The translations under genes and the position numbers were made by a program. Positions 1-8,848 of a stretch of DNA of 8,848 nucleotides are shown one piece after another. The DNA comes from a virus (Monodnaviria > Loebvirae > Hofneiviricota > Faserviricetes > Tubulavirales > Inoviridae). Position 1 is the first letter of the stretch, and each line of letters opens with the position of its first letter. Under the pieces are notes generated by a model, which made no database searches, was not told the origin of the DNA, and saw only the letters and a list, made by a program, of their open reading frames with translations. The stretch lies in IMG/VR virus record IMGVR_UViG_2579779034_000001. One strand, 5' to 3'.

Positions 1-32
1 ATTGGTGCGCATAATGTGCGACTCGTTATGTT
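1..32 (+). other. dif-like XerC/XerD recombination site at the left junction (hybrid attL-like)
   Basis: Positions 5-15 GGTGCGCATAA match the E. coli dif XerC arm 11/11 (dif recalled as GGTGCGCATAA-TGTATA-TTATGTTAAAT). Central 16-21 TGTGCG matches 3/6. The XerD-arm position 22-32 is degenerate (about 5/11). Confidence 0.7.
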
Positions 33-36
33 GAAA

Positions 37-69
37 AGGCCGCTGCGAAAATCGCCTCCGCAGCGGCCT
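37..69 (-). terminator. GC-rich perfect hairpin; possible terminator for the 103..1206 gene and inner stem of a folded attP
   Basis: Stem 37-47 (AGGCCGCTGCG) pairs perfectly with 59-69 (CGCAGCGGCCT), with an 11-nt loop. On the minus strand it lies just downstream of the stop of the 103..1206 gene and is followed by a short T run (plus-strand AAAA at 34-37). Confidence 0.45.
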
Positions 70-75
70 CTTTAG

Positions 76-100
76 CATAACGTCATTGTGCGAACCAATT
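76..100 (-). other. Inverted, degenerate dif-like site (attP2-like)
   Basis: Reverse complement of 76-100 is AATTGGTTCGCACAATGACGTTATG, which resembles site 1 (ATTGGTGCGCATAATGTGCGACTCGTTATG). Positions 1-16 can pair with 84-99 (14/16 Watson-Crick) and 25-30 with 76-81 (6/6). Confidence 0.45.
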
Positions 101-102
101 AA

Positions 103-1206
103 TTATTTTTTGTCTAATATAGCACTGCTTATATTAGAATTCTTAGCTGTAAAAAGCATATCTGCTTCTTGGTATATTTCACCTGAGCCACCACTAAAGT
201 TAAACTCGATGTTTAGGTCATTATAAGTAATGCTTGGAGAGTATTTTCTGCTTATTATAATATAGCCAACTGAATTTGCAGGAACCTCAACCCTTTCTTT
301 CGGTTTTTCCATAAGATATCCATTATCATTAACAAATTCAACATTGTATTTTTTATACACTCTTATTTCTTCATCATCTCTTTTCTTTTCATCTTTATAA
401 TCAAATGTATCAACATGTTCGGAAATATATTGAAAGTTTTTATATATTCTCCATCCGCCTGAAACCTTCAGTACTTCTGATGTTTTGTTAATTATTCTAA
501 ATTTGAACATTATTTGATTTTTTTCTATCTTGGCATCTATTATTTCAATAGGGTATTCATTCGCTCTTAGATTGTAATTTTCAGTTATCAGTCCATTACC
601 TATAGGATTAATCGAAAGCCCAGAATTGTACATATTGTTATAAATCATGTAGTTATATGCTTTCAAGGGGCCCGCGAGAGGGTTGTCTTCTGTTTGGATA
701 CTGATGACCATATAACTGAAAAATGCAGCAAAAATAGCACCACCTAAGATAAAAGAACCTGCACTCGGTGGCACTGAGTCTTTTGAAAGGTATGTTTTCC
801 CGTCAGTATCTTCTGATCTTATGGAAGGCATGGTACTTTTATCAAGAATTCTTGTTCCTTCAATCAAGAGCACCATGGATATTTTTTTATTTGCTAATAT
901 TCTATCTATCTTTACAAAAGAACCTTCGGTAGTTGCATCATGATCACTTGCAATTACAGTACAAGACATACCGTTTGGGACTTTTATTTCTACATTTTTT
1001 TCTTTATCCTTACCTTTATTAAATACTGATGCATTTATTACTATTGCATTGTCAGATATTGAGGTTTTACTTAAGGAGTTCCAGCAGGATAAGTAAAGTT
1101 GTCTTTTCCTAAATATAGATAAAAACTTATTGAGGACTAATGCCACAAAAAAAGAAGTAACTACTTTCAATGTATCAGTAATCAAGTCCGGCATCTTTTT
1201 TCTCAT
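103..1206 (-). CDS. Hypothetical membrane protein, 367 aa, two predicted TM helices; AT-rich phage cargo gene of unknown function
   Basis: A 367-codon ORF in DNA of roughly 32% GC (a sampled 60-nt stretch gave 19 G+C), where stop codons are frequent by chance. Hydrophobic segments at about residues 12-32 and 148-170. No catalytic motif recognised. Weak Shine-Dalgarno. Confidence 0.75.
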   Translation of the reverse strand: MRKKMPDLITDTLKVVTSFFVALVLNKFLSIFRKRQLYLSCWNSLSKTSISDNAIVINASVFNKGKDKEKNVEIKVPNGMSCTVIASDHDATTEGSFVKIDRILANKKISMVLLIEGTRILDKSTMPSIRSEDTDGKTYLSKDSVPPSAGSFILGGAIFAAFFSYMVISIQTEDNPLAGPLKAYNYMIYNNMYNSGLSINPIGNGLITENYNLRANEYPIEIIDAKIEKNQIMFKFRIINKTSEVLKVSGGWRIYKNFQYISEHVDTFDYKDEKKRDDEEIRVYKKYNVEFVNDNGYLMEKPKERVEVPANSVGYIIISRKYSPSITYNDLNIEFNFSGGSGEIYQEADMLFTAKNSNISSAILDKK

Positions 1207-1273
1207 TTTACTTAAAATCCAGTGTTTTAACTGATCAAAGATGGTCAGATAAAATGCAAAAATTTAGTATTTG

Positions 1274-1304
1274 AATATTACCCTAGTTAACCTAGGGTAA
1301 TATT
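1274..1304. promoter_or_regulatory. Perfect 13-bp inverted repeat with 5-bp spacer (operator-like palindrome) upstream of the 367-aa cargo gene
   Basis: Arm 1274-1286 AATATTACCCTAG and arm 1292-1304 CTAGGGTAATATT are exact reverse complements; spacer TTAAC. No adjacent T tract on either strand, so an operator is more likely than a terminator. Confidence 0.5.
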
Positions 1305-1310
1305 ATATCA
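1302..1310 (-). promoter_or_regulatory. Candidate extended -10 promoter element (TGATATAAT) for the 103..1206 gene
   Basis: Minus-strand sequence TGATATAAT at plus 1302-1310 fits TGnTATAAT. Its TGA is the stop codon of the upstream 139-aa gene. The palindrome 1274-1304 covers the predicted +1 region. Confidence 0.35.
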
Positions 1311-1727
1311 ATAATATGAATTTCTTCGGTGCCACCAATAAAGTAGACCGTATCCGACGATAAGAATCCCAAAAAATATCAGAGACATTCCCCAGCCAGT
1401 TCCGTACCACGAAACCATATCATCGAAAACCAACCCACCCGTTTCACGTACTCCGGCAGCTTCCTTAAGAATTGGTTTGAATACCGGAATCAGAAGGGCG
1501 ATCGCCAGTGGGGCACCCCAGCGAACAAGACCTGTTTCCATTTTGATCCCGAAAAAGATCCCCGCACCGACAACAAGCAACCAGACTATCAGGCCAGGCG
1601 CAGTTTCCAGTGCTGTTTGCCATTCAACATCGAAAGTTTTCATTAGCCAGGCAACAACTGCCAGACAGAAAGCAAATACGCCCACGACAACCAGTTCAAC
1701 GCCGCTTGTTTCGTTATTTCTACTCAT
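1308..1727 (-). CDS. Hypothetical small integral membrane protein, 139 aa, about four TM helices
   Basis: ORF with four hydrophobic stretches. Good RBS on the minus strand (AAGGA about 8 nt before the ATG). GC about 52% in a sampled stretch, clearly higher than neighbours. The antisense ORF 1477..1767 is shorter and judged spurious. Confidence 0.65.
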   Translation of the reverse strand: MSRNNETSGVELVVVGVFAFCLAVVAWLMKTFDVEWQTALETAPGLIVWLLVVGAGIFFGIKMETGLVRWGAPLAIALLIPVFKPILKEAAGVRETGGLVFDDMVSWYGTGWGMSLIFFGILIVGYGLLYWWHRRNSYY

Positions 1728-1769
1728 CCTTTTGATCCTTTTTCATTGTTCAAAATTCGCACAATAAAG

Positions 1770-1798
1770 AACGTGCAGTGTTGGTAATACTGCACGTT
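1770..1798 (-). terminator. Hairpin downstream of the 60-aa regulator gene (minus-strand terminator or attenuator)
   Basis: Perfect 10-bp stem 1770-1779 AACGTGCAGT with 1789-1798 ACTGCACGTT and a 9-nt loop. On the minus strand it is followed by CTTTATT and lies 18 nt after the stop at 1816. Confidence 0.45.
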
Positions 1799-1815
1799 TG
1801 TACCATTCGTGGTAC

Positions 1816-1998
1816 TTAATCCTTTTGTTTGGCAGACATGAGATCTTCTGCTGCATCTTTAGAGTAGTTATCAATCAGATAACCTAAAATCTCTGTCCAT
1901 GTAATTGTTTTTCCTAGTTTTACACTGGCATTTATAGCCAGTCGTTCTAGTTTCATTTTTCTTTCTTCCGTCACGTTATAAGTCGTGCGCTTTGCCAT
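1816..1998 (-). CDS. Small putative DNA-binding regulator (60 aa), divergently transcribed from gII
   Basis: 60-aa basic N-terminus (MAKRTTYNVTEERKMKLERLA). Position and orientation mirror the repressor-replication arrangement of integrative filamentous phages such as rstR-rstA in CTXphi. Function is inferred from context only. Confidence 0.5.
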   Translation of the reverse strand: MAKRTTYNVTEERKMKLERLAINASVKLGKTITWTEILGYLIDNYSKDAAEDLMSAKQKD

Positions 1999-2040
1999 TT
2001 TTTACGCTCGTTCAATGCAATATTTGAAGTGAGTATACAT

Positions 2041-2125
2041 GCTCATGAACTCATATCATCCAAGCCTCTTGAACTCACTAGCTCACTGGTGTAATGTTTA
2101 AACACTAATGAACTACTGAACTCAT
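2041..2125. promoter_or_regulatory. Divergent control region with four TGAACT(C/A)(A/C)(T/C) iterons; candidate gII promoter, operator and/or plus-strand origin
   Basis: TGAACTCAT at 2046-2054 and 2117-2125, TGAACTCAC at 2070-2078, TGAACTACT at 2109-2117, plus related GCTCACT and GCTCATG. Possible sigma70 promoter toward gII: -35 TTGAAC 2069-2074, 17-bp spacer, -10 TAATGT 2092-2097. Possible -10 TATACT on the minus strand (plus 2032-2037) for the regulator. Confidence 0.45.
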
Positions 2126-2167
2126 GTGTTAGTAAGTCGTCATTTTTGCAATTTTGAGGATTTATTC

Positions 2168-3220
2168 GTGATCGATTGGCTTACCGGGATTTTCCCTTGC
2201 ACACACAAACCGCTTCCGGCGGGGAGTGTTGTCAGCGTTGATGCTGACGGTGCAATTGAGTGGGAAACCGTTAAGCGACTGACTGTTCGCGGCTCGCATG
2301 AAGCAACGATGAAAGTACGATCGATAGGATCTAATGGCGAAGGTAAAGCGACACATTTGTACATTGATGGTAATCCTTCCAAGTTTCTGCAGGGGCATTC
2401 TGTTGTTGGGTCGGATGATATACAAGGGCTCATGTTGACGGTCTATGCCAGGATTTTATCCTTATTGAATATTCCTCATGATTTAGCGTCTTATAAAGCC
2501 GTTATGGCAGGTCAGTATAAAATTTCACGTGTTGACATTAATTACATGTATTCATTATCTACGCTGGAAAATGTCAGATCATGGCTTTATGCCGCCGAAT
2601 TTAAAGCTAAAACACGCCATGGTCGCGCATGTGGGAAAGGCGGTACAGTTTATTTAGGTAAAAACTCCCGTCGATGGAGTCTGAAATTTTATTCAAAATA
2701 TGATGAACACGTTTCTGGTAAAAAAGGGCACCAGATAGCCGAAGAGTTTGTACGAGCCGGGTTACTGGACTGGACGAAAGATAAATTACGTATTGAATTA
2801 ACATTAAGAACAACTGAGCTTATTGATTTAAATTTAACGCTTGGCGCTAACTGGAATATGAAAACACCACGTCAATTATTCTCTGAATATGTAGGGAGAA
2901 TAGAAATGAATCAGAATGCTATTTTAAGTGATGAAAAAATAACGAAACTGCCAAGAAAAATACAGTCAACTTATTTACTTTGGAAACAAGGGGCTAACAT
3001 GAAAGAAATGTTACCTCATAACACTTTTTATCGCCATAGAAGAGAATTGCTTTCGTTCGGTATCGATATTAATTTCTATTGTGATTCACCAGACTCTAAT
3101 AACGTTGTTCCGCTAATAAGAACGCTGGAAGCCAAGCCAGCGGAAATCCCCTTATGGATTTATGAGAAAGGTTTTATTTTCGATTACAACCGTATTTCGC
3201 ACGCCAGTAGCTGGCATTAA
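2168..3220 (+). CDS. gII: Replication initiation protein, pII-like rolling-circle nickase
   Basis: GTG start at 2168 preceded by RBS TGAGGA (2155-2160). N-terminus (M)IDWLTGIFPC aligns with M13 pII MIDMLVLRLPF as recalled. Internal matches PSKFLQGHSVVGSDD vs PAKVLQGHNVFGTTD and NNVVPLIR vs NNVVPLVR. The ORF track's longer start at 2126 overlaps the iterons and is less likely. Confidence 0.85.
   Translation: MIDWLTGIFPCTHKPLPAGSVVSVDADGAIEWETVKRLTVRGSHEATMKVRSIGSNGEGKATHLYIDGNPSKFLQGHSVVGSDDIQGLMLTVYARILSLLNIPHDLASYKAVMAGQYKISRVDINYMYSLSTLENVRSWLYAAEFKAKTRHGRACGKGGTVYLGKNSRRWSLKFYSKYDEHVSGKKGHQIAEEFVRAGLLDWTKDKLRIELTLRTTELIDLNLTLGANWNMKTPRQLFSEYVGRIEMNQNAILSDEKITKLPRKIQSTYLLWKQGANMKEMLPHNTFYRHRRELLSFGIDINFYCDSPDSNNVVPLIRTLEAKPAEIPLWIYEKGFIFDYNRISHASSWH
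2906..3220 (+). CDS. gX: Putative nested in-frame pX analog (C-terminal 104 aa of pII)
   Basis: In-frame ATG at 2906 (Met261 of the 2126 frame) preceded by GGGAGA. In Ff phages pX is produced from an internal start of gII. Inferred by analogy only. Confidence 0.35.
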   Translation: MNQNAILSDEKITKLPRKIQSTYLLWKQGANMKEMLPHNTFYRHRRELLSFGIDINFYCDSPDSNNVVPLIRTLEAKPAEIPLWIYEKGFIFDYNRISHASSWH

Positions 3221-3231
3221 AGGAAAGTAAT

Positions 3232-3549
3232 ATGTCTAATTATGGTCTTTTCGTTAAGGGTAAAATGTTGGGAGCCCGCCAACGTAATAAAGTTAATGGT
3301 CAGGGCTATTATAATGAAATTGGTATTGGCCTTGAAATACCTGATGGTTTTGGTGGTACAAAGCAGGATCAAATTATTATTCGAGTTTCTCAGGCTCTCG
3401 TTAACGCAGGTCTAATGAACCAGGCGAATGCTTTCATTGGGAAATTAGTTCAAATTCCTGTCTATGTCCGTGCGTGGTCAATGGAGGGTAGGGAAGGTGT
3501 AACTTATAATGTTTCTTCCGATGGTGGCATCGCAGAGATCAAAGGTTAA
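3232..3549 (+). CDS. gV: Putative ssDNA-binding protein (pV-like)
   Basis: 105-aa ORF immediately after gII with RBS AGGAAAG. The position is conserved in Ff phages; similarity to M13 pV is weak (an R/K-rich segment followed by GxYxNE). Confidence 0.6.
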   Translation: MSNYGLFVKGKMLGARQRNKVNGQGYYNEIGIGLEIPDGFGGTKQDQIIIRVSQALVNAGLMNQANAFIGKLVQIPVYVRAWSMEGREGVTYNVSSDGGIAEIKG

Positions 3550-3551
3550 AT

Positions 3552-3638
3552 ATGGACGATGTTATTCAAATTTTGATAGCGTCTGGCATCGTTATTTCTT
3601 TTGGCCTCGGCGCGATTACTGCGGGGGTCTTTCGTTAA
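3552..3638 (+). CDS. gVII: Minor coat protein pVII-like (28 aa)
   Basis: MDDVIQILIASGIVISFGLGAITAGVFR resembles the M13 pVII C-terminal part (IQISVVLCFALGIIAGGQR). Stop overlaps the next start (TAATG). Confidence 0.7.
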   Translation: MDDVIQILIASGIVISFGLGAITAGVFR

Positions 3639-3733
3639 TGTATATCGTTTATTTCTTCGGGGCTTATACCTTTGGTTTTGCCCTTTTCTATGCGGTCGGT
3701 TCATTTAAATCATTTTCTGACCGATTAATGTAA
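3638..3733 (+). CDS. gIX: Minor coat protein pIX-like (31 aa)
   Basis: MYIVYFFGAYTFGFALFYAVGSFKSFSDRLM resembles M13 pIX (MSVLVYSFASFVLGWCLRSGITYFTRLMETSS). ATG overlaps the gVII stop. The 3509..3733 track ORF is the same frame extended upstream and is rejected. Confidence 0.72.
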   Translation: MYIVYFFGAYTFGFALFYAVGSFKSFSDRLM

Positions 3734-3752
3734 CCTTAATGGAGTTATTCCT

Positions 3753-3995
3753 ATGAAAATTCTGTCTACTGTTAAATATAAAGTTGCTCTGGCTTCAACT
3801 GCGCTTTTTATTTCTGCAAGTTCTTTTGCGGCTGAAGGCGCTACAGGTGGTACTGATTATGCAGGCCAGGCAATGGATGCTTTGTTGACTCAGGCAAATG
3901 ATCTCATTGGTAAAGTATGGCCTGTTGTTGTGGCTGTGGTTGGCGCTGGGCTTGCCATTCGTATTTTCAAAAAATTCTCTTCAAAAGCGGTTTGA
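3753..3995 (+). CDS. gVIII: Major coat protein pVIII precursor (80 aa, signal peptide plus mature coat)
   Basis: Signal peptide ending SFA followed by AEG, an amphipathic and hydrophobic core, and a basic C-terminus KKFSSKAV, closely paralleling M13 pVIII (SFA-AEGDDP ... KLFKKFTSKAS). Confidence 0.95.
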
Positions 3996-4004
3996 ATTTC
4001 ACTC

Positions 4005-4028
4005 AGGGGCACTCGTTGCCCCTTTATT
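4005..4028 (+). terminator. Rho-independent terminator after gVIII
   Basis: Stem 4005-4011 AGGGGCA pairs with 4017-4023 TGCCCCT, 5-nt loop, followed by TTATT. Ff phages have a terminator at this position. Confidence 0.55.
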
Positions 4029-4041
4029 AAAGCGGGTTACT

Positions 4042-5358
4042 ATGAAAAGGAAAATATTAATTCTTTCCGCTGTCCTCATTTCTCCTTTTTCACATGCTGA
4101 GTCATGGGAAAGCATTACTAAATCCACTTATCAAAGTTCTGCCTACGCTGAAAGTAAGCAAATAACCAATCAGGATGGCTCTAAGACAACGGTTTACTAT
4201 ATTGATGCTGCTATGCAGGCCTCCGCTTGTCAGGGTGCTAAATCCAGTGCTCAGAGTGTATTTACTCGGGTTAAACCAACTTATGAGGGTATCTGGCCTG
4301 ATTCTGAATTCCGTCTTGTTTTTACTGGTGATTGTACTTACAGCGATTCACCAGGGCAGAAGGATAAATATTGGTCTTTAACGGCTTATATTGTTGGTAA
4401 TATTCAGCGTTCTGTTCCTGATGAAAAACCTACTGACCCGACACCAGAAGAAATTTGTGAAGCGAAGCCGCCAGAAGAAGGTGTATTTAATAATGTTGAT
4501 TCATATGATGGTGGTCGCTATATCTACTATAACGGCTGTGAATATGAGGCTACTGGTGTCATTGTTTGTCAGGGTGATGGTACTGTTTGCGCTGCAACAT
4601 GGAAGCCTACAGGTGCTGTAGCTGACCCCTCTGATAAACCCTCAACCCCCCAAAATGGCGGTGGTGAGTCCGGTGGTGGTGAGTCCGGTGGTGGTGAGTC
4701 CGGTGGTGGTGAGTCCGGTGGTGGTGAGTCCGGTGGTGGTGAGTCTGGCGGTGGTGAGTCTGGCGGCGGTAGTTCTGGCGGTAGTTCTGGCGGTAGTTCT
4801 GGCGGTAGTTCTGGCGGTGGCTCTAGTGGTTCCAGTCTTTCTAAAGGTGATATTCAGTCTGCGATCGAAGGTGCTTCACCCAAAATAGCCAGCGATATTC
4901 ATGATAAATTAACGGAGAAAGACACTTCATCAGATGATAAAAAAAATGCCGATGAACAAACCAGGAATAATATAAATCGTCTTGACGATTCCATTAACAA
5001 TCTTACGCGGGGGGCTGGCCGTTTTGCTGACCCTTCAGGTGGTGATTCTCGTTATGGAAAGGGCGACTCTGAATTAGATGGCGCTTCTACTTTAGCTGAT
5101 TCTGAATTGGGAATTGAAAAGGATTCTCACGGTGCTTTATGGGAAGCATTTTTAAATAAAGGTGCTATGCTGCCTAATTTGCCCAATGGTAACGGCTGCT
5201 CTGATTTTATTATTTTCCCCGGAGAGGTTTATCAGATTGATATTGGTTGCGATAAATTACTGACTATTAAAGATGTTCTTTCATGGGTTTTTTATTGCCT
5301 TACTTTCTGGTATGTCTTTACTTCTTTAACTTCATTGCTTCGCAAAGGGGGTGAGTGA
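4042..5358 (+). CDS. gIII: Minor coat / adsorption protein pIII (438 aa)
   Basis: Signal peptide [19 protein letters not shown]. Cys-rich segment [26 protein letters not shown] resembles M13 N1 (YEGCLWNATGVVVCTGDETQCYGTW). Gly/Ser-rich linker. C-terminus IDIGCDKL...[17 protein letters not shown] resembles M13 (IDCDKINLFRGV...FMYVFSTFANILRNKES). First ATG after the gVIII terminator. Confidence 0.9.
4657..4836 (+). repeat. In-frame tandem repeats encoding the pIII Gly-rich linker (seven 15-bp GGGES units, then 12- and 15-bp GGSS/GGGSS units)
   Basis: Seven 15-bp units GG(C/T)GGTGGTGAGTC(C/T) from 4657 to 4761, then GGCGGCGGTAGTTCT, three GGCGGTAGTTCT units (4777-4812), and a degenerate tail to 4836. 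Confidence 0.9.
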
Positions 5359-5699
5359 TGCCTTTATTATTAGGTATTCCTGCATTGTTGCGTTTTCTTA
5401 TTGGTCTTGTTCCTTTGTTTATTGGCTATGTGGCGAGTTTTTTAGCTCGACTTGCTACCAGAACAGGATTAATCGCCTTTGCATTGGTCGCATTAATTAC
5501 AACAACTGTTACGCTTTTAATGCAGTACCTTGCTGAGGTCATGTATAACGGTTTACCTGCTGATTTCTCCCATTTAATGGCGTCTGTATTGCCTGACCAT
5601 TTTCAGGCGTGTGTTAACGTTATTATGGTTACTCGTATCAGTGTTTTTGTTTTCGATTTAAAACAAAAATTTCTTGATTATGCAAACAGGGTGATTTAA
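5358..5699 (+). CDS. gVI: Minor coat protein pVI (113 aa)
   Basis: [24 protein letters not shown] closely matches the M13 pVI N-terminus (MPVLLGIPLLLRFLGF) and FDLKQK matches FDVKQK. ATG overlaps the gIII stop (TGATG). Strong RBS AAGGGGGTGAG. Confidence 0.92.
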   Translation: MPLLLGIPALLRFLIGLVPLFIGYVASFLARLATRTGLIAFALVALITTTVTLLMQYLAEVMYNGLPADFSHLMASVLPDHFQACVNVIMVTRISVFVFDLKQKFLDYANRVI

Positions 5700-6794
5700 A
5701 TGGCGGTTTATGTAGTAACAGGCAAATTAGGCTCAGGCAAGACACTTGTTAGTGTTTCCAGAATACAGGAAAGACTTGCTAAGGGTTGTCCTGTTGCCAC
5801 TAATCTTGATCTTAAATTGCATAATATGCCTATGGTTGGGCGTTATGCGAAAAAAACGCGCGTTATTCGCATTCCTGACAAGCCTTCATTAAATGATTTA
5901 CTTGCTATTGGTACTGGGAATACATCTTACGATGAATCCCGTAATGGCCTCCTTGTACTTGATGAATGTGGTACTTGGTTTAATTCCCGCTCATGGGGTG
6001 ATAAAGACAGACAACCTGTTATTGACTGGTTTTTACATGCCAGAAAATTAGGCTGGGATATTATATTTTTGATTCAGGATATTTCGATAATGGATAAGCA
6101 AGCTCGTCTGGCGCTTGCTGAGCATGTTGTTTATTGTCGCCGTTCAGATAAATTAAACATTCCTTTTGTTGGCTCCATTATGAATTTGGTTTCAGGGGCG
6201 AGATTTTCTTTACCAAAGGTACACTTTGGCATTGTCAAATATGGTGATAATGTTAATTCAATCACTGTTGATAAATGGATATATACAGGAAAATCTCTTT
6301 ATTCTGCTTACAATACCAAACAAGCGTTCACAGATAATTATCCTCATGGCGCATTTTCGCTTTTGCCACCATTTATCACGCACGGTCAATTTTCTGTTCA
6401 CAGAGGATTTAATTATTATATGCGCCTCACTAAAATTTATTTTCGCAAATCGAACCGTCTTATATTAATGCTTTCTTTTTTGGCGCTGGGGCTTGCGTTT
6501 GGTTTCTGGCTCCAGTCTGGAAAGAATGTTGATGAAATCTCAGCTATTAAATCTGCTTATGCTGAACAGGCGAGGGCGGTAACGCCTGATTCGTCCAGTG
6601 ACTTACCCCGACTTTCTATTAATTCTTTTTCACAACTTGGCTTTGACGTTTCCGTTACGTTTGTTGATGCAAAAGGTATGAAATATCAGTATTTTGATTT
6701 GATTAAAGATGGTTATTCCGTTGATATTAAAGATGCCTGTCGTGTTGTTATTAGAAAAGGCCGTTATTTACAGACTGTTACCTGTCAGGAGTAA
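5700..6794 (+). CDS. gI: Assembly ATPase pI (Zot-like), 364 aa
   Basis: Walker A GKLGSGKT and Walker B LLVLDECG. Long near-identical stretches to M13 pI as recalled (MAVYVVTGKLGSGKTLVSV, RQPVIDWFLHARKLGWDIIFLIQD, LAEHVVYCRR). C-terminal TM segment. Confidence 0.95.
   Translation: MAVYVVTGKLGSGKTLVSVSRIQERLAKGCPVATNLDLKLHNMPMVGRYAKKTRVIRIPDKPSLNDLLAIGTGNTSYDESRNGLLVLDECGTWFNSRSWGDKDRQPVIDWFLHARKLGWDIIFLIQDISIMDKQARLALAEHVVYCRRSDKLNIPFVGSIMNLVSGARFSLPKVHFGIVKYGDNVNSITVDKWIYTGKSLYSAYNTKQAFTDNYPHGAFSLLPPFITHGQFSVHRGFNYYMRLTKIYFRKSNRLILMLSFLALGLAFGFWLQSGKNVDEISAIKSAYAEQARAVTPDSSSDLPRLSINSFSQLGFDVSVTFVDAKGMKYQYFDLIKDGYSVDIKDACRVVIRKGRYLQTVTCQE
6420..6794 (+). CDS. gXI: Putative nested pXI (in-frame internal start of gI)
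   Basis: In-frame ATG at 6420 (Met241 of pI), the same position as the M13 pXI start (MKLTKIYLKK vs MRLTKIYFRK here), followed by the TM segment. Confidence 0.45.
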   Translation: MRLTKIYFRKSNRLILMLSFLALGLAFGFWLQSGKNVDEISAIKSAYAEQARAVTPDSSSDLPRLSINSFSQLGFDVSVTFVDAKGMKYQYFDLIKDGYSVDIKDACRVVIRKGRYLQTVTCQE

Positions 6795-6801
6795 TATTAT
6801 T

Positions 6802-8067
6802 ATGCGCTCTGTTATTGTTGCTTTTTTATTTGCCTGTTCATTCTGCGTTTCTGCTGAAACTGTTAATTTAAATAATTCATCTGTTCGCTCATTTGTTCAG
6901 TGGTATTCTTCAAAAACTGGCAAGCCTGTTATTGTTAATCCTGATATTAAAGGAAACGTAACCGTATTTAATGCTGATGTTAATCCAACAAATATTGATG
7001 ATTTCTTTAAGTCTGTTCTGAATGCTAACGGTTTTGTCATGCTTTCTGGCAATCCTGCGGTAGTCTCTTTGCCGTCTAAATTACCTTCACAGATGGTTTC
7101 GGATTCCGATGATTCTGATAACCAGTCTTATGATACTTTTCCTTCTGAGCCATCTTACCAGCCAGTACCTGTAGCGCTTACGGTCAGAAATTTTAAGCTG
7201 ACAAAAGTTAGATCGTCCGATGTTCAGCAACTGATTAAAATTTATCTTGATTCTAATGGTGGTGGTAATGTCGTGGATTATCCAGGCAATAACTCGCTGA
7301 TTGTTTCTGCGCCTGACGAGCTGCTGCCGGTTCTGTCCGATTTTATCAATTCTGTGGATGTTGCCCGCGATCAGGTTCTCATTCAGTCGCTGATGTTTGA
7401 AACCAGCTTGTCTGATGGCGTTGATTTATCGTTTGCGGCAGGTTCTGCATCCGGTCATAAGGTTGCGGGGGGCTTTAATACTTCTGCACTGGGTAGCGCT
7501 CTTTCTACGGCGGGCGGTTCTTTTGGTATTTTTGATGGTAACGTGTTGGCGCTGTCTCTGCGTGCTGTCCAGAGTAATTCACGCTCTAAGGTGATTTCAA
7601 CGCCGCGTATTCTTACTCAGTCTGGTCAGACTGGTTACATTTCCGTAGGTAAGAATGTGCCGTTTATCACCGGAAAGGTAACGGGCGAATCTGCCGGGGT
7701 AAATAATCCGTTTCAGACTATCGAGCGTCATGATGTTGGTGTTTCTCTCAAGGTAACGCCTGTTGTCATGGGTAACGGGCAACTAGTTCTGACTATCGAC
7801 ACTCGTGCTGATTCAATCAGCAATGATGATCAGGCATCCGATATTATTACTAATCAGCGCCAGATTCAGACGACAGTCCAGATTAAGGATGGTCAGACGT
7901 TGTTATTGGGGGGGCTTATCGATTCATCGTTCAGCAATGCCGAGCGTTCAGTTCCAGTTATAAGTAAAATTCCTCTTATAGGCTGGATTTTCAGTAGCAA
8001 GGCAGACAGCAATGAACAGCGTATTATGTATATTTTGCTTACAGCACATATCATTCGTCCACTTTGA
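6802..8067 (+). CDS. gIV: Secretin pIV (outer-membrane export channel), 421 aa
   Basis: Signal peptide MRSVIVAFLFACSFCVSA. Strong secretin-domain similarity to M13 pIV (for example SVGKNVPFITGKVTGESAGVNNPFQTIER vs SVGQNVPFITGRVTGESANVNNPFQTIER, DGQTLLLGGL, SKIPLIG). RBS AGGAG. The upstream ATG at 6709 would overlap gI and lacks a signal peptide. Confidence 0.95.
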   Translation: MRSVIVAFLFACSFCVSAETVNLNNSSVRSFVQWYSSKTGKPVIVNPDIKGNVTVFNADVNPTNIDDFFKSVLNANGFVMLSGNPAVVSLPSKLPSQMVSDSDDSDNQSYDTFPSEPSYQPVPVALTVRNFKLTKVRSSDVQQLIKIYLDSNGGGNVVDYPGNNSLIVSAPDELLPVLSDFINSVDVARDQVLIQSLMFETSLSDGVDLSFAAGSASGHKVAGGFNTSALGSALSTAGGSFGIFDGNVLALSLRAVQSNSRSKVISTPRILTQSGQTGYISVGKNVPFITGKVTGESAGVNNPFQTIERHDVGVSLKVTPVVMGNGQLVLTIDTRADSISNDDQASDIITNQRQIQTTVQIKDGQTLLLGGLIDSSFSNAERSVPVISKIPLIGWIFSSKADSNEQRIMYILLTAHIIRPL

Positions 8068-8110
8068 TGGATAGCGGGTAGGTGCGTGAGCCCTGCTCGC
8101 TATCCATCAA
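8064..8110 (+). other. Large hairpin immediately after gIV; candidate packaging signal and/or terminator
   Basis: Perfect 13-bp inverted repeat 8064-8076 TTGATGGATAGCG with 8098-8110 CGCTATCCATCAA, 21-nt loop, overlapping the gIV stop. The Ff packaging signal hairpin lies at this position. No T tract follows. Confidence 0.45.
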
Positions 8111-8136
8111 ATGGACATTATTGATTGGGGTAACTA

Positions 8137-8445
8137 ATGGATTCTTATGGGATTTTATCTGCTCTGGCAGAACGAACGATTACAGCGGAAGAAGCAAAAA
8201 CAATGACACTTGCAGCCAGAAGTTCTTCGGCTCAGGTAAATGAAGCATCACTTGCTCTGTTACTGATTGATAATACTCTGGATGCGATCAAAGCAGCTGC
8301 CAGTGAAGGGAAAGGATACACTTTACTTCCTTCTTATGAGATTTCTGTAAAAGCCATTGATTTAGCAGAAGAATTTTTAAGGAAACAATGCGGCTATGTT
8401 ATTGATAACCAGAATGGCGTAAGGACGGTCTATTGGTTTATATGA
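8137..8445 (+). CDS. Hypothetical protein, 102 aa (accessory)
   Basis: ORF with an Ala/Leu-rich, probably helical N-terminal part; RBS-like GGGGT upstream; no recognisable motif. Confidence 0.55.
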   Translation: MDSYGILSALAERTITAEEAKTMTLAARSSSAQVNEASLALLLIDNTLDAIKAAASEGKGYTLLPSYEISVKAIDLAEEFLRKQCGYVIDNQNGVRTVYWFI

Positions 8446-8562
8446 TAACCCCGGACAATGACAAAACTTGCTTTTGTTAGTGTCAGGGGTTGGCCAAGCC
8501 GAACAATTCTGTTTTTTTAGCGTTATTGCTGATTCGGCGCGGCAGCATTACGAGGAGATAAA

Positions 8563-8796
8563 ATGCAATTTTTCACATCCAGCGATACTGTAATGTTATG
8601 TGCGAAGACCTGCGATCGCTGTGGTCGCCATGCGAAGACGGTGGTAGATGACATTGAGTTCAATGAGTTTCTGTCTGTTAATCACTTAGCTGGATACGGT
8701 TCAATTTTTGGTGACAGTAATCGCTTAAAACTGGATTTATGCCAACATTGCCTGAAAGACGTCCTGGGCCAGTGGATTACGGTCTGTGACCAATGA
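8563..8796 (+). CDS. Hypothetical Cys-rich putative zinc-ribbon protein, 77 aa (accessory)
   Basis: Strong RBS GAGGAG 5 nt upstream of the ATG. Cys pairs CDRC (residues 17-20) and CQHC (60-63) plus C13 and C75, compatible with a Cys4 zinc-binding fold. Function unknown. Confidence 0.62.
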   Translation: MQFFTSSDTVMLCAKTCDRCGRHAKTVVDDIEFNEFLSVNHLAGYGSIFGDSNRLKLDLCQHCLKDVLGQWITVCDQ

Positions 8797-8831
8797 CGGC
8801 ACCGGTAACGCCAGTTCCCGCCATCCTTACC

Positions 8832-8848
8832 ATTGGTGCGCATAATGT
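8832..8848 (+). other. Start of the right-junction dif site (XerC arm), truncated by the window end
   Basis: ATTGGTGCGCATAATGT is identical to 1-17. GGTGCGCATAA-TGT is the beginning of the canonical dif core. Confidence 0.7.

Follow-up and report, generated by a model that had tools for sequence, protein, structure and literature searches.

How does a filamentous phage genome that encodes no recombinase come to lie between two copies of half a dif site, and to which of the known filamentous phages does it belong? These questions are raised by a stretch of 8,848 nucleotides (nt) from IMG/VR virus record IMGVR_UViG_2579779034_000001 (Inoviridae), referred to in its full length as the window. 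We propose, at a probability of about 0.8, that the window represents one 8,831-nt unit of a filamentous prophage of the UPφ group (Inoviridae, Lineavirus-like) that resides at the chromosomal dif site and would have entered it by CTX-type integration. The host is an enterobacterium, almost certainly E. coli. The UPφ group has already been published (Shapiro and Putonti 2020, Virus Evol 6:veaa030, PMC7307601), and the observation is real and not new. What this analysis directly demonstrates is the gene content, the sequences at the junctions, the arrangement in tandem, the geometry of the hairpin and the limits of the modules.

The terminal repeats enclose 14 genes, every one of them intact. 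Rightward from 2168 these are genes II (with gene X in frame), V, VII, IX, VIII, III, VI, I and IV, followed by orfD and orfE; orfC (60 amino acids, aa), orfB (139 aa) and orfA (363 aa) run leftward from 1998. Searches against Pfam and PHROGs recognized a complete inovirus gene set (pII, pV, pVII, pVIII, pIII, pVI, pI and pIV). The DNA outside this core (8068-8848 plus 18-2167) amounts to about 2.93 kb with five open reading frames (ORFs) on both strands, in agreement with the approximately 2.9 kb of accessory DNA noted in an earlier interpretation made from the letters of the window without database searches (the sequence-only reading). The same reading had found no integrase gene, and in domain searches of the 14 genes, domains of integrases, recombinases and transposases were indeed absent throughout. 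Recombinase annotation was also absent from the flanks of the E. coli copies (hipBA on the left, SDR and fimbrial genes on the right).

An identical 17-mer, ATTGGTGCGCATAATGT, stands as a direct repeat at window positions 1-17 and 8832-8848. It is composed of ATT, the XerC arm of dif and TGT, so that its bases 4-17 match the 14 nt with which E. coli dif begins (GGTGCGCATAA plus TGT). A chance origin of an exact 17-mer at both ends is excluded (about 4^-17 per position pair). The dif-type repeats that had been noticed at the ends of the element are thereby borne out as exact copies of the XerC half of dif; two full dif sites are not present. The left site is a hybrid, GGTGCGCATAA-TGTGCGACTCG-TTATGTTGAAA (window 4-36). 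The right end of the phage (8809-8848, + strand) consists of a conserved lead-in followed by ATT, the XerC arm and TGT, and is 92.5% conserved in a second filamentous prophage at dif, that of E. coli A1.S1.65 (locus L014), which we take to be of the CUS-1/Ypfφ type. Its last 17 bases form the half that the phage contributes to attR or to the junction with a following copy.

Over its full length the window was 99.8% identical to a prophage adjoining hipBA in E. coli AZ184, and at least 80% of it is present in 46 to 49 of the 5,426 complete genomes of E. coli. In every locus opened, the prophage follows immediately after hipBA, where dif is located. Carrier genomes hold a median of two copies, with two or more in 17 of the 25 genomes listed, and 104 of the 106 right-end matches in 49 carrier genomes were chromosomal (the other 2 were on plasmids). 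The proteins of UM146 are 97.5-100% identical to those of the window. ECONIH2 (CP014667), which the UPφ authors named as carrying a tandem triple (PMC7307601), matches 86% of the window at 98.5% identity.

The left junctions of these loci were uniform: host flank, then GGTGCGCATAATGT, then the phage spacer (GCGACTCG, ACGACTCG or CAACGCG, as opposed to ATA in dif). Junctions between tandem copies carry the phage's own site, and all arrays read to their right end (UM146, AZ184, SCU-118 and A1.S1.65) stop at a perfect 28-nt dif, GGTGCGCATAATGTATATTATGTTAAAT. The full dif that had been expected on the right was thus found at the array ends of near-identical genomes.

An explanation without integration, in which the window would stem from a circular phage or plasmid whose record was cut open at a random position, or from a decayed remnant that produces no virions, could draw on the lack of host DNA in the window and on the ATT before the XerC arm, which the phage and the E. 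coli flank have in common. A single circle, however, has one attachment site and cannot carry the 17-mer at both ends. Additionally, the near-identical copies with sequence context are all chromosomal, between hipA and the dif-distal genes, the 14 genes are intact, and the release of phage DNA has been reported for the UPφ group. We regard this explanation as highly improbable and continue with an integrated unit. None of the findings that the sequence-only reading had named as refuting it was encountered: the repeats derive from dif, the loci are chromosomal and no recombinase is annotated in the flanks.

Two of the arrays showed further particularities. In AZ184, which carries two copies, the second is interrupted by ISEcp1: the transposase gene lies within gene IV (locus L003, 13210-14472), as also in strain 1434, and the secretin of that copy is inactivated. 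In E. coli EC5502 (NZ_CP092647.1, 30000-62000), 16 right-end matches were found in a long tandem array beside hipA with many frameshifted genes. The array may have arisen by genuine amplification, or reads of the replicative form or error-prone long reads may have misled the assembly.

The attachment hairpin and a proposed route of integration

The phage attachment region occupies window positions 1-99 (attL, + strand), which correspond in the circular phage form to 8832-8848 joined to 18-99. ATT is followed by the XerC arm GGTGCGCATAA (4-14) and by TGT (15-17), where identity to dif ends. After the 8-nt remainder of the phage spacer come a XerD-like arm, TTATGTTGAAA (26-36), a GC stem-loop (38-68) and then two arms in inverted orientation, of which the one at 70-80 is XerD-like (reverse complement TTATGCTAAAG) and the one at 87-97 XerC-like (reverse complement GGTTCGCACAA). 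The joined site therefore offers a perfect XerC arm, an 11-nt spacer, TGTGCGACTCG, and a XerD-like arm with 9 of 11 matches to dif; its inverted counterpart reads, in reverse complement, GGTTCGCACAA-TGACG-TTATGCTAAAG, with a spacer of 5 nt. For the joined site as single-stranded DNA (ssDNA), a single long hairpin with a fork was predicted at -31 kcal/mol (z = -5.7), a value that none of 200 shuffled sequences equalled. This attachment hairpin, a 99-nt fork built from two inverted dif-like sites with spacers of 11 and 5 nt, is kept across nine cargo variants, and homology ends at its foot, at about 103-111.

The window has several features of a CTX-type integrative mobile element exploiting Xer (IMEX). 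It lacks a recombinase of its own, two inverted dif-like sites are predicted to fold in the (+) strand, and homology to the central region of dif is found only beside the XerC arm; the left site is a hybrid, and in four genomes the right end is a perfect dif. Of the ssDNA mechanism and the rolling-circle virion production that belong to this type, the tandem arrays (median of two copies per genome) are the visible correlate. The identity shared with dif ends after TGT, on the XerC side of the central region, and this confinement fits the need of the CTX model for a single XerC-mediated strand exchange. Since the element is integrated at dif without its own recombinase, it presumably depends on host XerCD. 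The sequence-only reading had described a plasmid-like phage turned into a chromosomal XerCD-dependent element. While its integration at dif, its lack of a recombinase and hence its presumed dependence on XerCD stood, the direction of evolution is unsupported, and the UPφ authors argue the opposite, namely that IKe and I2-2 lost dif (PMC7307601). In a search for a dif or attP remnant in IKe, I2-2, If1 and M13, the best matches had 9-11 mismatches to the 28-mer, which is the level of shuffled sequence.

We propose that the region 8832-8848 plus 18-99 folds into the forked hairpin in the packaged (+) strand, and that no phage recombinase takes part. The hairpin would bring together the perfect XerC arm and a XerD arm close to the consensus, with a bulged spacer between them whose two sides measure 11 and 5 nt. 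While XerD is bound, host XerC would then exchange one strand pair with dif at the boundary of the XerC arm and TGT, and replication would fix the product. As an outcome, a non-functional hybrid site would be left on the left and a perfect dif would be regenerated on the right, where further copies could enter and give rise to tandem arrays. Duplex prophage DNA would be unable to form the hairpin, and excision would not occur. For virion production, pII would nick at the origin (proposed at the hairpins in 1770-1815), and rightward rolling-circle synthesis through one copy into the next would yield a circular (+) strand. This strand would be coated by pV, recognized via the packaging hairpin at 8057-8116 and extruded through pI and pIV. 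By analogy with CTXφ and Ypfφ, we infer XerC-only catalysis, irreversibility and the position of the origin. DNase-protected phage DNA has been reported in culture supernatants for UPφ901 (PMC7307601).

The same sequence can also be read as a duplex site. In a VGJφ-type route, the double-stranded replicative form would recombine with dif via GGTGCGCATAA-N11-TTATGTTGAAA, the reaction would be reversible, and virions would be made after XerC-mediated excision. The perfect XerC arm, the XerD arm with 9 of 11 matches and the TGT homology beside the XerC arm would all serve such a reaction, and Ypfφ has been reported to insert between resident copies, that is, into such a duplex site. However, the spacer measures 11 bp (10 bp in the NCTC9104 variant) as compared to 6 bp in dif, and a 6-bp register leaves the XerD arm with only 5 of 11 matches. 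The attP1 of CTXφ, with 12 bp, was reported to be unsuitable for Xer recombination because of its spacer length, and a table in the same review of Xer integration places Ypfφ and CUS-1φ in the CTX type (Das 2014, PMC4246890). Further, the inverted partner arms are kept in every cargo variant up to the module boundary and would be needless for a duplex site. We consider the VGJφ-type route unlikely, and CTX-type integration of folded ssDNA remains our preferred reading.

Several points weigh against this preference. Xer dependence, ssDNA integration and irreversibility are transferred from CTXφ and apply to this phage by analogy. The preference reported for incoming Ypfφ, which integrates between resident copies at the imperfect dif, is unpredicted by the classical CTX model. 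The hairpin is nearly invariant in relatives, and its covariation is limited to one double change at the apex (C-G to T-A on both sides of the GC stem in locus L013, for which L017 shows the T-G intermediate) and the replacement of one wobble pair by a Watson-Crick pair where the XerC arm is in duplex (T-G to T-A). In addition, the GC-rich apex is followed by TTTTC on the minus strand and is probably an intrinsic terminator for the leftward cargo genes too, so that conservation of the hairpin may in part be unrelated to integration. The origin is assigned from conservation and module boundaries. Finally, the window ends before the bases that tell dif from another phage copy: past base 8848, ATATTATGTTAAAT would mean the end of an array (attR = dif), and GCGACTCGTTATG would mean a further tandem copy.

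Affinities of the core genes and cis elements

Protein identities to IKe, I2-2, If1 and M13 were determined by tblastn. pIV was 71-73% identical to its counterparts in IKe and I2-2 as compared to 50% in M13, pI 65-66% as compared to 54%, and pVI 52% as compared to 35%. For pVIII the values were 55-59% and, over a partial alignment to M13, 48%. pVII was 70% identical to IKe and I2-2 and had no match in M13, and pIII was 52-56% identical (52% to IKe, 56% to the N-terminus of I2-2), with only local matches in M13. pII had a sole close match, in I2-2 (57%; 22% to M13). On the nucleotide level, megablast against about 50,000 phage records returned only a 190-nt stretch of gene IV, at about 80% identity to IKe and the Erwinia PEar phages, and the window gave no match to M13. 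The sequence-only reading had placed the core very close to the classical Ff-type phages; the filamentous core is confirmed, and its nearest relatives are instead IKe and I2-2 (50-73%).

The window carries an IKe-type morphogenesis module, as expected of Lineavirus, with 52-73% identity for pVII, pVIII, pIII, pVI, pI and pIV and with PF21443 before PF05357 in pIII. The genome-wide closeness to M13 expected of Ff phages (genus Inovirus), including an Ff-type gene II and gene V, was not found. Judged from sequence comparison, the morphogenesis core is IKe/I2-2-like (Lineavirus), and replication genes II and V are of the I2-2/Ypfφ type.

This replication module brings up a second identity for the window, namely that it is CUS-1/Ypfφ itself, the filamentous prophage of E. 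coli K1 and Yersinia pestis. Integration site, tandem arrays, layout and attP hairpin are held in common, and gII and gV are 86-94% identical to the A1.S1.65 prophage (94% for pV, 86.5% for the C-terminal part of pII, of which that prophage retains a remnant). This candidate, suggested by the dif site, the uropathogenic E. coli (UPEC) hosts and the layout, was rejected. The A1.S1.65 prophage shares with the window only gII/gV (about 81% on the DNA level), orfB (98.6% identical as a protein), attP and the origin region. The morphogenesis proteins are unrelated: pIV is 27% identical, and pIII, pVI, pVII, pVIII, pI, orfC, orfD and orfE have zero matches. The approximately 99% nucleotide identity over a 7.1-kb region of regulation, replication and assembly that would identify CUS-1/Ypfφ is not seen, and UPφ was reported to be more than 85% identical to Ypfφ in genes II and V and less than 20% in the rest (PMC7307601). 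We hold this identity to be extremely unlikely and retain the assignment to the UPφ group.

The A1.S1.65 copy itself looks replication-defective. At 10764-11286 of that locus, its helix-turn-helix (HTH) regulator and gene II are both truncated and abut each other; attP, the origin hairpin and the structural genes are intact.

In the window, gene II (2168-3220, + strand, as are all core genes) encodes a rolling-circle replication initiator of 350 aa (PF05144, Phage_CRI, 4.7e-71; PF05155, G2P_X_C, 2.3e-29), and gene X starts in frame within it at 2906 (104 aa, phrog_17464). Gene V (3232-3549) encodes the ssDNA-binding protein, which belongs to PF17426 (Putative_G5P, 3.2e-51) and not to the Ff gene V family; pV is 40% identical to gV of I2-2, and tblastn gave zero matches in M13, IKe and If1. 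Gene VII (3552-3638, 28 aa, PF19978) is followed by gene IX (3638-3733, 31 aa, translation MYIVYFFGAYTFGFALFYAVGSFKSFSDRLM, similar to pIX of IKe and I2-2), whose ATG overlaps the gene VII stop (TAATG). Gene VIII (3753-3995) encodes the major coat protein as a precursor of 80 aa (PF19199, 59% identical to IKe). Behind gene III lie gene VI (5358-5699, 113 aa, PF17537), gene I for the assembly ATPase of the Zot family (5700-6794, PF05707, 4.7e-41) and gene IV for the outer-membrane secretin (6802-8067, PF00263, PF21305 and PF03958).

Gene III (4042-5358) encodes the attachment protein, with PF21443 at residues 22-125 and PF05357 at residues 135-176. The domain order is of the IKe type: a pilus-binding domain, a TolA-binding N1-like domain, a (GGGES)7 GGG (SSGG)4 linker and a C-terminal anchor. 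The linker is encoded by tandem repeats of 15 nt (GGGES) and 12 nt at 4657-4830, and AZ184 differs from the window by exactly one 15-nt unit in this tract, which is hypervariable and slippage-prone. The exact pIII was the only one of seven queried proteins that was missing from a collection of 15 billion proteins.

Accessory genes had been said to replace the usual intergenic region. This view did not hold, as a packaging hairpin after gene IV and an I2-2-conserved hairpin beside orfC are retained; the intergenic region is expanded, not replaced. The packaging (morphogenetic) signal, which overlaps gene IV at its end, is a hairpin of 60 nt at 8057-8116 (+ strand) with a computed ssDNA fold of -24.5 kcal/mol (z = -8.2). 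DNA alignments to I2-2 and IKe reach 8105 and 8099, respectively, and span the annotated morphogenetic signals of these phages, and the apex, GGGTAGGTGCG..AGCCCTGC, is common to the window, I2-2 and IKe. Just downstream of orfC, two adjacent hairpins were found at 1770-1815 (+ strand; first GAACGTGCAGTGTTGGTAATACTGCACGTT, second GTACCAttcgTGGTAC; ssDNA fold z = -5.9). The first contains 34 nt that are 91% identical to I2-2 2666-2699 within diverged surroundings, and the second stem is altered on both sides in A1.S1.65 (GTCTCA..TGAGAC). Homology with the otherwise unrelated A1.S1.65 prophage ends at 1826, just right of these hairpins. The first hairpin is a candidate (+)-strand origin for a pII of the I2-2/Ypfφ type.

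The gene orfC (h3, 60 aa, 1816-1998, - strand, phrog_2503) is divergent from gene II, in the position of rstR in CTXφ, and is presumed to encode a regulator or repressor; for the Ypfφ counterpart, a review states homology to RstR. An intact, unannotated homologue of 67 aa with 58% identity is present in the "major intergenic region" of If1 (NC_001954, 5119-5322, minus strand). A further homologue in the intergenic region of I2-2 (NC_001332, 2720-2918, minus strand) is split over two frames, either because it is a pseudogene or because the deposited sequence contains an error. As its homologues lie inside the intergenic regions of If1 and I2-2, orfC is not cargo, and a regulator-like gene in supposedly non-temperate phages bears on the question of whether IKe and I2-2 had an integrating ancestor. 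A ribbon-helix-helix repressor was expected from the sequence pattern of orfC. No Pfam or Protein Data Bank (PDB) sequence match was obtained; a single-sequence AlphaFold2 model showed three helices and a disordered N-terminus, and Foldseek found no significant fold match for it. In the divergent control region between orfC and gene II (2046-2124, + strand), three exact copies of TGAACTCA are accompanied by a degenerate GAACTAC. Three of the four exact copies in the window thus fall within 79 nt, and the cluster is a candidate operator or a set of Rep-binding iterons.

Two genes follow gene IV on the + strand and are equated with h1 and h2 of UPφ by this position (PMC7307601). orfD (h1, 8137-8445, 102 aa) matched phrog_4115 only and is 100% identical in UM146. 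orfE (h2, 8563-8796, 77 aa, phrog_5435) contains a CxxC...CxxC putative zinc ribbon, for which zinc-finger matches were sub-threshold only. The DNA of both genes is 99.5-100% conserved in 49 E. coli genomes, and tblastn found no homologue of either in IKe, I2-2, If1 or M13. Between them lies a non-coding element of about 105 nt with two hairpins (8446-8552, + strand, fold z = -3.7), which is 86% identical to 16891-16994 of the A1.S1.65 locus, where it occupies the same position between non-homologous genes. A comparison of the two copies revealed no compensatory changes, and the differences in A1.S1.65 weaken the predicted stems; the element might conceivably be a minus-strand origin or the promoter of orfE. 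A consensus scan of the window for promoters and terminators gave no more sites than shuffled sequence, and an Rfam scan returned zero families at the gathering threshold.

The cargo slot

Homology to the window breaks off at 98-117 in 14 related loci. It sets in again at 1306 (1309 in locus L023), or at 1746-1754 in variants that replace orfB as well. The segment swapped in relatives, the cargo slot, thus extends from 100 to 1305 and includes a palindrome at 1274-1304. At least nine alternative cassettes were seen in it. Besides orfA of the window, these are a 159-aa ORF with a 91-aa ECs_2282 zinc-binding protein, a protein of the STM4504/CBY_0614 family, DUF6953 with a PD-(D/E)XK nuclease, a Fic/Doc toxin, a Mob_CxxC_CxxC protein with a 63-aa ORF, and three more sets of uncharacterised ORFs. 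The palindrome, between orfB and orfA, has perfect 13-bp arms, TATTACCCTAG ttaac CTAGGGTAATA (fold z = -4.8), and may represent an operator, a terminator or the scar of a recombination event.

The variable cargo gene of the window, orfA (363 aa, 103-1194, - strand), is AT-rich (GC 29-36%) and received no family assignment in domain searches. Its predicted structure (pLDDT 85) comprises a transmembrane helix, a beta-sandwich, another transmembrane helix and a second, alpha/beta-sandwich domain; the structural neighbours were generic only. Among species-representative genomes a single relative was detected, in Pseudomonas putida (29% identity), and only 35 relatives were found overall. Some of these neighbour HicAB in Pseudomonas, others are carried by a conjugative plasmid of Enterobacter or lie at the margin of an inovirus in Providencia. 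The Providencia rettgeri locus (L026, 1-8074) is a filamentous prophage with a Phage_GPA-type Rep, Zot and a secretin. Its orfA relative (37% identity) lies at the prophage edge, divergent from the Rep gene, which is the same relative position as in the window. orfA is a mobile accessory gene.

The neighbouring orfB (139 aa, 1308-1727, - strand, phrog_4174) encodes a hydrophobic protein that, to judge by its sequence, looks membrane-embedded. It is as similar in locus L002 as in the A1.S1.65 prophage (98.6% identity) and is kept in most of the relatives read, with replacements in the Fic/Doc and L020 variants. The five accessory ORFs are thus not equivalent cargo, and only the orfA cassette (about 1.2 kb) is truly variable.

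A UPφ copy (locus L012) and the A1.S1.65 prophage share the module of attP, cassette, orfB and origin at 99.2%, despite their unrelated cores. We tentatively suggest, at somewhat less than even odds, that the segment between the attachment hairpin and the origin (about 100-1826) is a reassortable cargo module. In a CTX-type lysogen, rolling-circle synthesis would run from the origin of one prophage to the origin of the next, and a mixed tandem array would yield a packaged genome with the core of the upstream phage and the attP-proximal cargo of the downstream phage. Such reassortment would explain the finding of at least nine unrelated cassettes at identical boundaries in a backbone of about 99% identity, the 99.2% module of cassette, orfB and origin behind two unrelated cores, and the orfA relatives at the margin of the Providencia inovirus, whose Rep is different. 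Homologous recombination between conserved attP and origin segments would produce the same pattern in L012 and A1.S1.65. If reassortment does take place, the slot could be a shared exchange point for accessory or defence genes among the dif-integrating inoviruses of Enterobacterales.

A piece of the attachment hairpin was also encountered apart from the prophage. A 71-nt segment (window 27-97, without the XerC arm) is present at 462 places on E. coli plasmids, at about 94% identity. These megablast matches had suggested a plasmid form of the phage, which was rejected, as they consist of the hairpin piece only. In both copies opened, on plasmid pGF47-A (locus L009, 2501-2571) and in the chromosome of E. 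coli MS 115-1 (locus L010, 3001-3071), the piece adjoins a gene of the STM4504/CBY_0614 family and an ISNCY transposase. Since an STM4504-family gene is one of the alternative cargo cassettes, prophage end and cargo have apparently been captured together and spread by an insertion sequence or plasmid. In the MS 115-1 segment (1700-5800), a perfect dif stands just to the right of the hairpin fragment, the STM4504 gene, the ISNCY transposase and a gene annotated as "TolA C-terminal domain-containing protein". This arrangement suggests that the site holds a dif-integrated element that is decayed or of a different kind.

The genes found in the slot are numerous, for the most part uncharacterised, and mobile: in E. 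coli, Salmonella and related bacteria they travel among plasmids, islands and filamentous prophages that are not related to one another. Should they have exclusion or defence functions, a small and very common prophage would be well suited to study the trade of accessory genes among inoviruses.

Comparison with known systems

The closest known system is the UPφ group with UPφ901, with which the window shares a near-identical backbone, h1/h2 after gene IV and integration at dif with a repeat of about 15 nt derived from it. UPφ viruses were described as about 50% identical to IKe and I2-2, with this dif-derived repeat, tandem arrays, two novel genes where IKe, I2-2 and M13 are intergenic, three reverse ORFs beside dif of which two are variable, and variation of the GGGES repeats in g3p; their hosts are E. 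coli, Salmonella, Klebsiella, Citrobacter and Y. enterocolitica (PMC7307601). The reference unit of UPφ901 measures 7,560 bp and that of the window 8,831 nt, a difference that points to a different dif-proximal cargo (orfA, 363 aa, in the window). The UPφ paper appeared without an analysis of the attachment hairpin, origin, packaging signal and cargo-slot boundaries. XerCD-dependent integration by a folded ssDNA site is an established paradigm from CTXφ and Ypfφ. What we add to it, namely the boundaries of the cargo slot with at least nine cassettes and the 99.2% attP-cargo-origin module in an unrelated prophage, is small and incremental. The value of the analysis lies in a clean annotation of one UPφ member, with its hairpin geometry, packaging signal, candidate origins, regulator and exact slot.

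In comparison with IKe and I2-2, the gene order VII-IX-VIII-III-VI-I-IV is the same as in the window and the packaging hairpin is homologous, whereas gII, gV and the origin-like hairpin are common to the window and I2-2 only. IKe, I2-2, If1 and M13 are episomal and lack a dif-like site, orfA, orfB, orfD and orfE, all of which are present in the window.

CUS-1/Ypfφ (E. coli O18:K1:H7 and Yersinia pestis) resembles the window in its recombinase-free integration at dif, its inverted XerC/XerD sites, which a review also describes for Ypfφ, and its tandem arrays, as well as in variable ORFs beside attL, two ORFs beside attR and related gII/gV. A difference lies in the regulator position, which holds a remnant of an HTH gene in the prophage of A1.S1.65 and orfC in the window.

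CTXφ of Vibrio cholerae likewise carries inverted dif-like sites, with spacers of 12 bp (attP1) and 5-7 bp (attP2) as compared to 11 and 5 nt in the window; its sites are inactive as duplex and active when folded (PMC4246890). In both phages the attachment sites have the last rightward gene on one flank and the leftward regulator side on the other, dif homology is found on the XerC side only, and a regenerated dif permits tandem arrays. The Rep protein of CTXφ (RstA) belongs to the Phage_CRI family, as does pII of the window. Beyond Rep, Zot and the general inovirus layout, the sequences are unrelated, and host and receptor differ. The two phages also differ in the separation of the arms (33 nt in the window, 90 bp in CTXφ) and in the place of the cargo, which lies between attP and the origin in the window, whereas ctxAB is located upstream of attP in CTXφ.

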